64,000 nucleotides of DNA from a virus, in the IMG/VR virus record IMGVR_UViG_3300006310_000773. One strand, written 5' to 3'. Position 1 is the first letter of the stretch. Every line of letters starts with the position of its first letter. This document shows, piece after piece, positions 44,034 to 61,800 of this stretch. The notes beneath the pieces are model-generated. The model was given only the letters and a program-made list of their open reading frames with translations, was not told where the DNA came from and did not search any database. Both the position numbers and the translations under genes were made by a program.

Positions 44034-44378
44034 GGTCAGTTCTTCTGTTCCCAAGTGACTGACCTGAACTCGGCTATAGTCTACGCAGCGAGTGCGTAAG
44101 AGTATGCGGTATAATCGTCATTGTTTGCGATTAATTTAATGGACCGTTACGGTGGTGCCTCTACCGAATACCTCTATATCTACCTTCACAATCAATCGAA
44201 ATCTATTTCAGCCCCATCAACGAAAGTCATATCCAAAATAAAGTGTGACATAGGTAATACCTAAAGCGAGCAATATCATTATTGTGAGCCACATTAATTT
44301 CTTTTCCATAACTTCCTTTGGTGGAGCTGATCGGAATCGCACCGATGTCTTAACTGTTATCTAGATATGTCAACAGTA
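44034..44378 (-). ncRNA. ssrA: Circularly permuted two-piece tmRNA
   Basis: Acceptor piece ends ATCGGTGCGATTCCGATCAGCTCCACCA at 44319. Coding piece starts GGGGCTGAAA at 44215. G3-U70 pair present. Tag ANNDDYTAYSYALAA* at 44128-44081. Outer ends are approximate. Confidence 0.92.
44217..44309 (-). CDS. 30-aa single-TM peptide within the tmRNA intervening segment
   Basis: AAGGAAG RBS; MEKKLMWLTIMILLALGITYVTLYFGYDFR. Confidence 0.6.
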   Translation of the reverse strand: MEKKLMWLTIMILLALGITYVTLYFGYDFR

Positions 44379-45026
44379 TCAATAACTATTTATAACCTCC
44401 TGTAATCTTTCTACATGTTCATCAGGATCCGCATAAAAAATTTGTGGTGTTCCATCAACTACTGCAATAACTATAACTACTTGAGTTACTTTATTTCCTG
44501 TTCTTTCTTCATACATCTTTGCATATGCAGTTCCCTGTAATTTATAACTTTCTATCCATTCTTCTTTTTTTGGTTTAGAAGAGGTTTTCCAATCTATTAT
44601 AGAAATTTCATCATCATATTCAGCAATACAATCACATCTACCAGCTACTCCAAGAAATTTAGACCACAAAGATACCTCAAGACCATAAATTTTTCCAATA
44701 TGAGTATTTAAAATTGATTGAACTGATTGAAATAACTCAATAGAATCAGGCATATGCCCACTCAAATAATCTTGCTGATTTTTGAGATAGTCTTCGATAA
44801 TCGAATGCGTTCTTGTTCCTCTTCGCGAAGCTTGTGTTGAGATTCTATTGGCTTCTTCTTCTCCAACCCGCTTTCTCCAAGCCTGTATACCAGCTTTGGA
44901 CAAAGATGATAATACTGTAGTGATACTCGGGAAATTTCCATCTGGTGTCTCGTATAATCTTTTTCCTGAAGTATTTATTTGTTTTATTTGACCAGGAATA
45001 TCAACTGTTTCGTGTAAAAAATTCAT
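44379..45026 (-). CDS. PD-(D/E)XK (Cas4-like) exonuclease
   Basis: PSITTVLS, RGTRTH, AGRCDCIAE, IIDWKTS and QGTAYA. Confidence 0.9.
   Translation of the reverse strand: MNFLHETVDIPGQIKQINTSGKRLYETPDGNFPSITTVLSSLSKAGIQAWRKRVGEEEANRISTQASRRGTRTHSIIEDYLKNQQDYLSGHMPDSIELFQSVQSILNTHIGKIYGLEVSLWSKFLGVAGRCDCIAEYDDEISIIDWKTSSKPKKEEWIESYKLQGTAYAKMYEERTGNKVTQVVIVIAVVDGTPQIFYADPDEHVERLQEVINSY
44387..44394 (-). promoter_or_regulatory. T4-type late promoter upstream of the tmRNA
   Basis: TATAAATA immediately before the acceptor piece. Confidence 0.6.
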
Positions 45027-47549: not shown

Positions 47550-47622
47550 TGGAGCGAATGCATGGAATTGCACCATGATCTCAAGGTTGGAGCCCTGTAT
47601 TCTGCTTTTGAACTACATTCGC
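47550..47622 (-). tRNA. Atypical tRNA (Gly-like body, irregular anticodon loop)
   Basis: GCGAATG/CATTCGC acceptor with TCCA end; intact D and T stems; anticodon arm CAGGG-CTCCAA-CCTTG; T-loop TGCAATT. Confidence 0.7.
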
Positions 47623-56275: not shown

Positions 56276-56470
56276 TTATAATATAAATCTATCTTTCAAT
56301 TTAATATCAGCGAGTGTTCCACATTCAGGACAATGTGCTTCTGTTTTAGGAAGTTTTAAACTTTGTGAATTTTGTAACATCTGCGCGTTTGGAGTCATTG
56401 CGTATGACCACCAATTTTTACACTTACTGCAAGTATAATGATATAAAATCTCAATTGTATATTCGTGCAT
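56276..56470 (-). CDS. Small zinc-ribbon protein
   Basis: CSKC...CPECG. Confidence 0.65.
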   Translation of the reverse strand: MHEYTIEILYHYTCSKCKNWWSYAMTPNAQMLQNSQSLKLPKTEAHCPECGTLADIKLKDRFIL

Positions 56471-56494
56471 TTTTTCCTATAGGCGCGGGAAAAA

Positions 56495-56734
56495 AAGAAC
56501 CATGCAGTTGCCCTTAGCCTTCGATACCTAAAACCTTTGGTCTGCGAACTTCTCACGAATCGTCATCACCGCTCTAGTGTATGCATTTCTGCAACAACTT
56601 GCACATAACATTCCTACCTCAGAGTCACGAGTGGGGGAGTTACCCCTAGTAGAGCAGTACACGAACTGTTACTATCTCTGAACCATTCCAACCATTGGGT
56701 TTAACCCCATCTTACTCAGAATGCTTAGGTTCTT
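56495..56734 (-). ncRNA. Candidate structured ncRNA (about 240 nt)
   Basis: No ORF of 60 aa or more, raised GC, closing helix AAGAACC/GGTTCTT followed by a U-run, several internal helices. Confidence 0.6.
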
Positions 56735-57064
56735 AATTTTTATAAACTTAAAACAACAACTGATGCAAGGTAAAACATACCAAACAATAATACAGCTGTT
56801 GCAATTTCTTCTAACCACATTTTCATATCTAACTTATATATAAAATATTGTATCAAATATCATTACAAACATTGGTAATAAAATCAATGCAAGAAATAAA
56901 ATATGATATGTTGTTCTTTCAATTCTCTCAATCATAATGTAAATAATTTGCCTGTTTGAAGTACATACATTATATACCAATTCCATTTCTCGAAAAAAGA
57001 TATATAAGAATATGCTATAATCAATAAAATAATAACTCTTAAATTAAAAATGTTTAGTACCATA

Positions 57065-61159: not shown

Positions 61160-61800
61160 AGAGTCGTGACATGCCCAGGATTTTTCATATACAACCCCCC
61201 CGGGGTCCCCCTCGCTATCTGAACCAGGCCCCCCGCCCCGTCGGTCGGCGACACACATAGCTCAGCGTGCGAAAAGCCCCAGCGTGAACCCCGCCGGTGA
61301 CTAATTTTAATCAAATTTTCATAGATCTTGTATAGGGGGTCGACGGGGTGACGTACTCTAGCGACACATCTTCCCTCACCCGTGTCTGAGAGGTTTGTTC
61401 CCTCTCTCTAATCCCTGATACTCATCTCGCTCGCCGTCACATCAGCCGTCTACGTCCCGTTACTCCGCGTTTTACAATTGTCCCTTAGTCGAACAACACC
61501 GCAATGGGTACTCTGTAGGTGACTAGCGGGGAATGTCCAGAGAATCCACACTCCCTATTTCTAATGGTCATTTTACGCAATCATTATTGACCTATTTGCT
61601 TTCTATCTTTCTAGGGTTAATTTAAAAGGGTTTCTTAATGTCTTATCTTGAGGAGCTTCTACTCCCGGCGCTCCCCCATCCGGGCCGACCTATTTGCATT
61701 AGTGCCGATTTAATTTGTTGACCCAACATGTTCGCCGAGTCTCCTCAGTAGGAGCCGGGTCGTTCCCATTCAAAAGGGATTCATTCATTTATTTAACTTA
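61160..61800 (-). ncRNA. Candidate large structured ncRNA or cis-element (about 640 nt)
   Basis: GC-rich, no long ORF, many helices, directly downstream of a consensus promoter. Confidence 0.5.

Follow-up and report, generated by a model that had tools for sequence, protein, structure and literature searches.

Introduction

The minus strand of a 64,000-nt stretch of viral DNA (IMG/VR record IMGVR_UViG_3300006310_000773; the whole stretch is called the window below) contains a segment, at positions 56495-56734, that a preliminary description made from the letters of the window had flagged as a candidate pseudoknotted non-coding RNA of 240 nt. Is this segment a real structured RNA, does it belong to a class already described, and what might it do for the phage that carries it? 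Large natural RNAs whose complex folds are conserved are uncommon, and new biology has come from each class characterised so far, with RNA cages, guide RNAs and ribozymes among the examples. Fremin, Bhatt and Kyrpides (2023) drew candidate structured RNAs from IMG/VR, among them 8,495 unnamed candidates from DNA viruses (PMC10690425). The RNA family described here comes from the same data source and is the same kind of object, and it may be one of those 8,495 candidates; the main text of that paper contains no motif resembling it.

Results

Known RNA classes in the window

The window belongs to a T4-like myophage whose baseplate hub is at most 39% identical to those of isolates, and it carries seven tRNAs. 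A gathering-threshold scan of the whole window with Rfam 15 returned tRNAs, a tmRNA and Ocean-VII as its only matches. The tmRNA gene is circularly permuted (Table 1), and a permuted tmRNA is also found in the related locus L024; such genes have been reported in Melnitz-like phages (PMC9004378). The tRNA-like gene listed separately in Table 1 may be an aberrant or non-canonical tRNA. Ocean-VII is a second orphan marine RNA motif carried by the same phage as the 240-nt RNA.

The preliminary description had called the segment an unassigned structured RNA, possibly a ribozyme or a protein decoy, and had proposed that it be compared with Rfam and that homologs be collected and examined for covariation. 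The comparison with Rfam 15 gave no match between positions 56300 and 56900 at E values up to 10, and none at the RNA in three typical members of the family described below (L008, L024 and L074) at E values up to 1. The Rfam models of ROOL, GOLLD and OLE matched neither the window RNA nor typical members, and those of hammerhead, twister, HDV-like, pistol, hatchet and glmS gave no catalytic-core match at the RNA. The core string of the RNA was not found in the literature searched.

A family of marine phage RNAs

Near-identical copies of the window RNA occur on three IMG/VR contigs, in which the RNA is more conserved than its flanks. A 19-mer taken from the GUGA hairpin matched 65 IMG/VR contigs exactly, and the alignment of these contigs revealed a sharply bounded conserved block, running from CCUAAG to CAUGG, between flanks that are wholly unrelated. 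A pattern based on the 5' half of the RNA retrieved further IMG/VR contigs and at least 120 marine metagenome contigs, and the family from both sources comprises at least 130 distinct sequences. Against the covariance model R1, which was built from 50 copies, the collected copies scored 120-292 bits, with the window copy at 198.5 bits (E 1e-48). The same 19-mer had 7 matches in the genomes of 185,579 species, which is approximately the chance expectation, and only one of these (L074) was a true copy. That full copy lies on a 1730-bp contig (DQME01000035.1) binned into a Gammaproteobacteria MAG, and this contig is probably a mis-binned viral sequence.

The carriers of the family are uncultured marine T4-like myophages related to Melnitz and to the pelagimyophage group. 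Judged by RNase H, the closest isolates (50% identity) are the Methylophilales phages Melnitz, and the family model matched neither the whole Melnitz genome nor the nearest virus record (G001). BLASTN searches of 50,697 GenBank phage records with the window copy and with the best-scoring member likewise gave no match, and a cultured carrier was not found.

The absence of a long open reading frame and a GC content above that of the flanks, both mentioned in the preliminary description, were borne out. The element has 47.5% GC compared with approximately 24-34% in the flanks, the longest stop-free stretch has a family median of 49 aa, and a frame open through the whole RNA was found in 0 of the 99 full-length copies, indicating that the RNA is non-coding.

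Covariation supports a two-domain fold

Folded as a single sequence, the window copy is unexceptional (minimum free energy z of -1.1 for the minus strand and 0.0 for the plus strand), and support for a structure therefore rests on comparison with other copies. A MAFFT alignment of 50 copies, fitted to no structure, contained 57 pairs in 11 helices, with 96.8% of the cells paired and compensatory changes in 38 of the pairs, while sliding the partners reduced pairing to 34-44%. When 99 distinct full-length copies were aligned to the model, 97.9% of the cells were paired and 48 of the 57 pairs had compensatory changes, compared with 38-48% paired for slid partners; none of 500 shuffles reached the observed values. 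The 99-copy alignment is biased towards the model, hence the importance of the MAFFT test. The candidate that had been flagged is thus strongly supported as a real, unassigned structured RNA, and by the evidence of sequence comparison the object at 56494-56734 is a new RNA family.

The fold shown by this covariation, a predicted secondary structure, has two domains built on three three-way junctions, together with an arm tipped by a GNRA (GUGA) loop (Table 1). P1, P2 and P4 meet in the first junction, through near-invariant linkers (UAA in 96/99 copies and UAU in 90/99). P2 leads by way of a variable linker to P3, which opens into the second junction with the P3a/P3b hairpin and a GGG-UAAC-CCC hairpin, and P4 and P5 lead to the third junction, from which two arms extend, the variable P6 and the long P7-P8. 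Four of the five P1 pairs have changed on both sides, and an extra outward pair forms in 83% of copies. All six P2 pairs are compensatory (98.8% paired in the 99 copies), as are all ten pairs of P7. P3 is paired in 99.8% of cells, with the letters UCAGAG/CUCUGA kept in 84-87 of the 99 copies, and P4 covaries at pairs 149/326 (GC 89, AU 8) and 150/325 (five pair types).

Table 1. Coordinates of the RNA, its parts and the other features discussed (window positions unless a locus is named)
Feature	Position	Strand	Remarks
Upstream 28-aa single-transmembrane peptide ORF	56740..56826	-	stop ends 5 nt before the RNA
Structured RNA, 241 nt	56494..56734	-	AAGAACCUAAG to GCAUGGUUCUUU; R1 model positions 1-255
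P1, 5' strand GAACC	56728..56732	-	pairs with 56497-56501; closes the whole RNA
P2, 5' strand GCAUUC	56719..56724	-	pairs with 56608-56613 (GAAUGU)
GGGG-UUAAA-CCC hairpin	56697..56708	-	inserted into the P2-P3 linker; confined to the window and near-identical relatives (L001-L003)
P3 domain	56619..56681	-	UCAGAG (56681-56676) pairs with CUCUGA (56624-56619)
P3a/P3b hairpin	56649-56672	-	loop UUCGU...; within P3; compensatory changes
P3c hairpin, GGG-UAAC..-CCC	56635-56645	-	within P3; compensatory changes
P4, 5' strand GUGC	56601..56604	-	pairs with 56502-56505 (GCAU)
P6 arm, UGCA-GAAA-UGCA	56582..56593	-	short here; long and variable in most other copies
P7 stem carrying the P8 arm	56525..56581	-	56571-56581 with 56525-56534
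P8 arm, 32 nt	56539..56570	-	GNRA tetraloop GUGA at 56553-56556
Single-stranded P7-P5 linker, 12 nt	56513..56524	-	UCGAAGGCUAAG; tetramer GGCU at 56516-56519
P1, 3' strand GGUUC	56497..56501	-	partner of 56728-56732
U tract (7 U), terminator-like 3' end	56490..56496	-	directly after P1
Downstream 64-aa zinc-ribbon-like ORF	56276..56470	-	begins 19 nt past the U tract
Circularly permuted (two-piece) tmRNA gene	44034-44431	-	Rfam tmRNA_permuted 111.8 bits; alpha_tmRNA 62.9 bits
tRNA-like gene	47550-47622	-	ARAGORN two-base 'anticodon' (cc); Rfam 49 bits, below the other tRNAs
Ocean-VII RNA motif match	61384-61424	-	60.9 bits; gathering score 53.5
Mini copy	L024:9231-9393	-	
Mini copy	L150:3669-3831	-	
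Mini copy	L088:5057-5218	+	
Mini copy	L129:1106-1267	-	
Mini copy	L145:3913-4074	-	

Much of what had been read from the window alone reappears in this fold: the closing helix AAGAACC/GGUUCUU, the UCAGAG/CUCUGA helix and the UUC-GUGA-GAA hairpin are all present and are conserved with compensatory changes. Two further hairpins that had been listed do exist in the window copy, but the UGCA-GAAA-UGCA hairpin corresponds to the variable P6 arm, of which only a shortened tip is present, and the GGG(G)-UUAAA-CCC hairpin is an insertion confined to one lineage, aligning with a gap in all other aligned copies.

The pseudoknot of the preliminary description fared differently. It was to be formed by a 9-bp helix, ACUGCUCUA/UAGAGCGGU, crossing UCAGAG/CUCUGA, and its strands are indeed perfectly complementary over 9 bp in the window copy. 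Over the 99 copies, however, these strands were paired in 56.6% of cells, compared with 56.0% for shuffled partners, and they belong to the covarying P3a/P3b and P7/P8 helices. The pseudoknot therefore falls, and we regard it as scarcely credible. A mutual-information scan of the alignment revealed no other supported pseudoknot.

These observations also bear on whether the RNA could be a new self-cleaving or catalytic class that cuts polycistronic phage transcripts at its own border. Such a role would suit its size, multi-junction architecture, putative GNRA tertiary contact and conserved unpaired nucleotides, as well as its sharply bordered position between cistrons. We nevertheless consider it very unlikely, because no known ribozyme core was matched and because both a conserved pseudoknot and the mark of a cleavage site are absent.

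Several known motifs were considered and rejected. An 11-nt GAAA tetraloop receptor (CCUAAG / UAUGG) in P1 was dropped: its letters are present as CCUAAG...YAUGG, but they do not form one continuous helix and are assigned by covariation to P1, P2 and P4. P2 begins with the G of CCUAAG, while GUG of P4 is the partner of AU(G) in the 3' strand, and compensatory changes are seen in both helices. A K-turn in P8 was rejected on its non-bulged strand, which is AG and not GA. The sarcin-ricin-like AGUAC..GGAC is broken by the variants GGCC and GGCU, the likeness of GUACAAGGA to a CsrA site is lost in variants, and the GA needed to complete a hammerhead CUGA core is missing. The string GUUCGCAGACC is reminiscent of the group I R element. 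A group I intron was set aside, as there was no Rfam match and no covariation-supported pseudoknot, and as the flanks are unrelated, separate ORFs across loci.

The P8 arm and its GNRA tip

The P8 arm is identical to the letter in 49 of the 99 copies, and the remainder differ mainly by compensatory or wobble changes. Its tip is C-GUGA-G in 96 copies and still a GNRA loop in two more (98/99 in total); the divergent copies L082 and L084 have a different P8 stem with the same tip. GUGA loops are reported to prefer CU:AG helix steps (Costa and Michel, 1995), two of which occur in the highly conserved P3. We infer that the GUGA loop may dock there.

A palindromic tetramer in the P7-P5 linker

Two points go beyond the preliminary description, namely a palindromic tetramer in a junction strand and the conservation throughout the family of a terminator-like 3' U tract. 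The tetramer, in the P7-P5 linker, reads GUAC, GGCC or GGCU in 99 of 99 copies and is always self-complementary. Its two central bases are UA in 81 copies and GC in 18, with no mixed states, and across the whole alignment no columns correlate with this centre. Parsimony on a tree built without the tetramer columns gave 7 switches between the states, at least 2 of which are forced by well-supported branches, although the tetramer has two centre states only and phage recombination could inflate the apparent number of switches. In the context AA-GUAC-AA, unpaired adenines lie on both sides of the tetramer.

The conservation of a self-complementary tetramer through these changes points to self-association of the RNA, as judged from its sequence. 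In OLE and GOLLD, covariation between adjacent bases of a palindrome corresponds to intermolecular kissing contacts verified by cryo-EM (PMC12286853). Because adjacent bases are unable to pair with each other within one chain, and given this precedent, we infer that the RNA would form a symmetric dimer through the tetramer.

Comparison with these systems indicates how far the precedent reaches. OLE is a symmetric homodimer in which a palindromic tetranucleotide covaries from GGCC to GAUC or AGCU (PMC12286853), and it thus resembles the present family in having a self-complementary tetranucleotide with adjacent-base covariation. It differs, however, in being bacterial (Firmicutes) and approximately 610 nt long and in having known protein partners, and there is no homology between the two. 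ROOL and GOLLD, which are large ornate RNAs found in phages and prophages, form homo-oligomers by kissing contacts, for which palindrome-preserving adjacent covariation was used as evidence (PMC12286853); like the present family they are phage-encoded, often lie beside tRNA genes and have GC-rich multi-junction folds. On the other hand, at approximately 580 and 800 nt they are much longer than our RNA of approximately 240 nt, which their Rfam models match in neither sequence nor structure, and their palindrome is placed in a hairpin loop whereas ours is in a junction strand. The hosts of the present family are also unlike those of ROOL and GOLLD, being marine T4-like phages of streamlined heterotrophs. 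As the family has a single symmetric contact, a dimer is predicted and not a cage.

The HIV-1 dimerisation initiation site pairs two RNAs symmetrically through a 6-nt palindrome in a hairpin loop with flanking unpaired adenines. That site is part of a viral genome, whereas the palindrome described here has 4 nt and is placed in a strand of a three-way junction of a small non-coding RNA.

The U tract and the transcript that it may end

The preliminary description had noted a U-run after the closing helix. This run consists of seven U in the window and proved to be conserved in the family: among 91 distinct flanks, 85% have a T run of at least 4 in the 14 nt that follow the GG of P1, compared with 7.6% for positions chosen at random in these loci, and the T residues are retained even where the facing base is unable to pair. 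The U tract directly follows a stem, as in an intrinsic terminator. The stem here is made by the 5-6 AU-rich pairs of P1 together with P4, on which they stack, and approximately 230 nt lie inside it; the usual compact hairpin, GC-rich, with 5-20 pairs and a loop of 3-8 nt, is not present at 56490-56505, where a consensus terminator scan made no call because of the 230 nt that the stem encloses.

In most loci the upstream ORF has its stop codon within a few nucleotides of the start of the RNA, too close for a separate promoter to fit between them, and no consistent promoter motif was seen immediately upstream of the RNA, as would be expected if the upstream ORF reaches it. With a stop codon near P1 at one end and the U tract at the other, the RNA is most simply the terminal part of the upstream ORF's transcript, and we suggest from this arrangement that P1 and the U tract would end that transcript.

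Neighbouring genes

The genes adjoining the RNA are always in the same orientation as the RNA. In the window, the gene upstream encodes a 28-aa peptide (MKMW.EEI...) that is conserved and is also directly upstream of the RNA in L002, L087, L093, L122, L142, L154 and L024. Small peptides of this kind, with 28-60 aa and a single transmembrane segment, make up 32 of the 76 distinct upstream ORFs and belong to at least six families. Their frequency, along with the position of the RNA, which always closely follows a stop codon on the same strand, could be explained if the RNA were a protective or processing element at the 3' end of the upstream mRNA, with its bulky fold blocking 3' exonucleases and tuning expression of the small ORF. 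We think this quite unlikely, however, because more than half of the upstream ORFs encode unrelated soluble proteins, and because a 240-nt fold with junction nucleotides kept in at least 130 copies exceeds what such a role would need, simple hairpins being sufficient elsewhere.

The 64-aa zinc-ribbon-like ORF downstream of the RNA in the window has a related cluster with members in 21 loci, mostly at other positions with respect to the RNA. The genes downstream of the RNA in the main clade encode a basic 197-aa protein (C0), a glycosyltransferase, a T4-type RNase H and DUF6433, none of which is universal. C0 is the most frequent of them (28 loci); it has 190-198 aa and a very basic N-terminus (for example, L026:2727-3320, minus strand), often starts 18-32 nt after the RNA, and had no match in Pfam or PHROG. 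It may be an RNA-binding partner in the main clade. As a universal conserved protein partner C0 was rejected, since it is absent from 34 loci with at least 700 nt of flank, the window included.

The downstream genes are also where a riboswitch-like attenuator would act, that is, an RNA in which a ligand or protein stabilises the junction core and P1 and, with the U tract, sets read-through into the next early or middle gene. The conserved U tract directly after P1, the many near-invariant junction nucleotides, which recall ligand-binding RNAs, and the presence of the next ORF 18-32 nt downstream in many loci would all agree with this, and the use of a glutamine riboswitch has been reported in a related phage group (PMC9004378). 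Yet the downstream genes vary widely and fall into no consistent functional class, the commonest of them being absent from the window, and there is no conserved antiterminator pairing. As attenuation would also account for neither the self-complementary tetramer nor the invariance of the P8 arm, we consider it rather unlikely.

In 9 of 66 loci, tRNA or tmRNA genes are located within 4 kb of the RNA on the same strand, and in L042, L017 and L031 a permuted tmRNA lies 37-94 nt downstream of it, also on the same strand. The tRNA region of phage T4 encodes stable RNAs as well, the species 1 and species 2 RNAs (rnaC and rnaD), which are 119-139 nt long. A search of the T4 68-76 kb region with R1, filters off, gave a best score of 6.3 bits and no match at rnaC or rnaD.

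Variant members of the family

Five loci carry a 'mini' form of 162-163 nt (Table 1), in which the 5' domain and P4 are kept and P5-P8 are replaced by one hairpin, whose stem covaries and whose loop of 15-18 nt, GGCAGUGUUCAGUAACGG, is conserved. One phage has both forms, with the mini copy placed 700 nt downstream of the full one. As the mini copies are without the 3' domain, the palindrome and P8, neither the palindrome nor P8 is essential to every member of the family. In one other copy, P8 is replaced by a different insert of 100 nt. The contig of L166 contains two head-to-tail copies (L166:1-363, minus strand) separated by U8 only, the second of which is identical over 117 nt and runs off the end of the contig; this tandem may be a true duplication or an assembly artefact.

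Discussion

In the account that we consider most likely, and to which we give about an even chance, the RNA is stable, brings an early transcript to its end, adopts a compact fold, dimerises and acts in trans on a partner. The RNA would be transcribed together with the small ORF just upstream, as the 3'-terminal piece of that transcript, ended by P1 and the U tract and perhaps trimmed to approximately 245 nt. Two such molecules would then pair through the P7-P5 tetramer to give a symmetric dimer, while docking of the GUGA loop on a helix of the other domain would lock the fold. More speculatively, the dimer particle could act in trans during infection, with the near-invariant P8 arm binding a conserved partner, and the RNA could be placed with ROOL, GOLLD and OLE as a self-assembling RNA. 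Counted against this account are the mini copies, the short AU-rich P1 at a site that the terminator scan did not call, the palindrome with its two states, the failure to find the RNA in cultured phages, and the unexceptional z of -1.1.

A bolder version of this account, which we put forward only tentatively and hold to be doubtful, is that these phage RNAs, which abound in ocean viromes, form a new self-assembling class. The 240-nt two-domain fold would dimerise or build larger assemblies through the junction palindrome, and either its invariant GNRA-tipped arm would capture a conserved component of the host or phage or the RNA would itself be catalytic. If this were true, then among RNA-only quaternary structures, so far known from ROOL, GOLLD and OLE, the present RNA would be the smallest and the first of marine T4-type origin.

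The palindromic tetramer leads to a directly testable prediction of a dimer, and at approximately 240 nt, with a natural mini form of 163 nt, the RNA is amenable to crystallography, cryo-EM, chemical probing and in vitro assays. The family is abundant in marine viral metagenomes, with at least 130 distinct copies, and the phages that carry it are related to those infecting the most numerous heterotrophs of the ocean. Its presence in these genomes suggests that T4-type phages carry stable RNAs beyond the tRNAs, the tmRNA and the still unexplained rnaC and rnaD.
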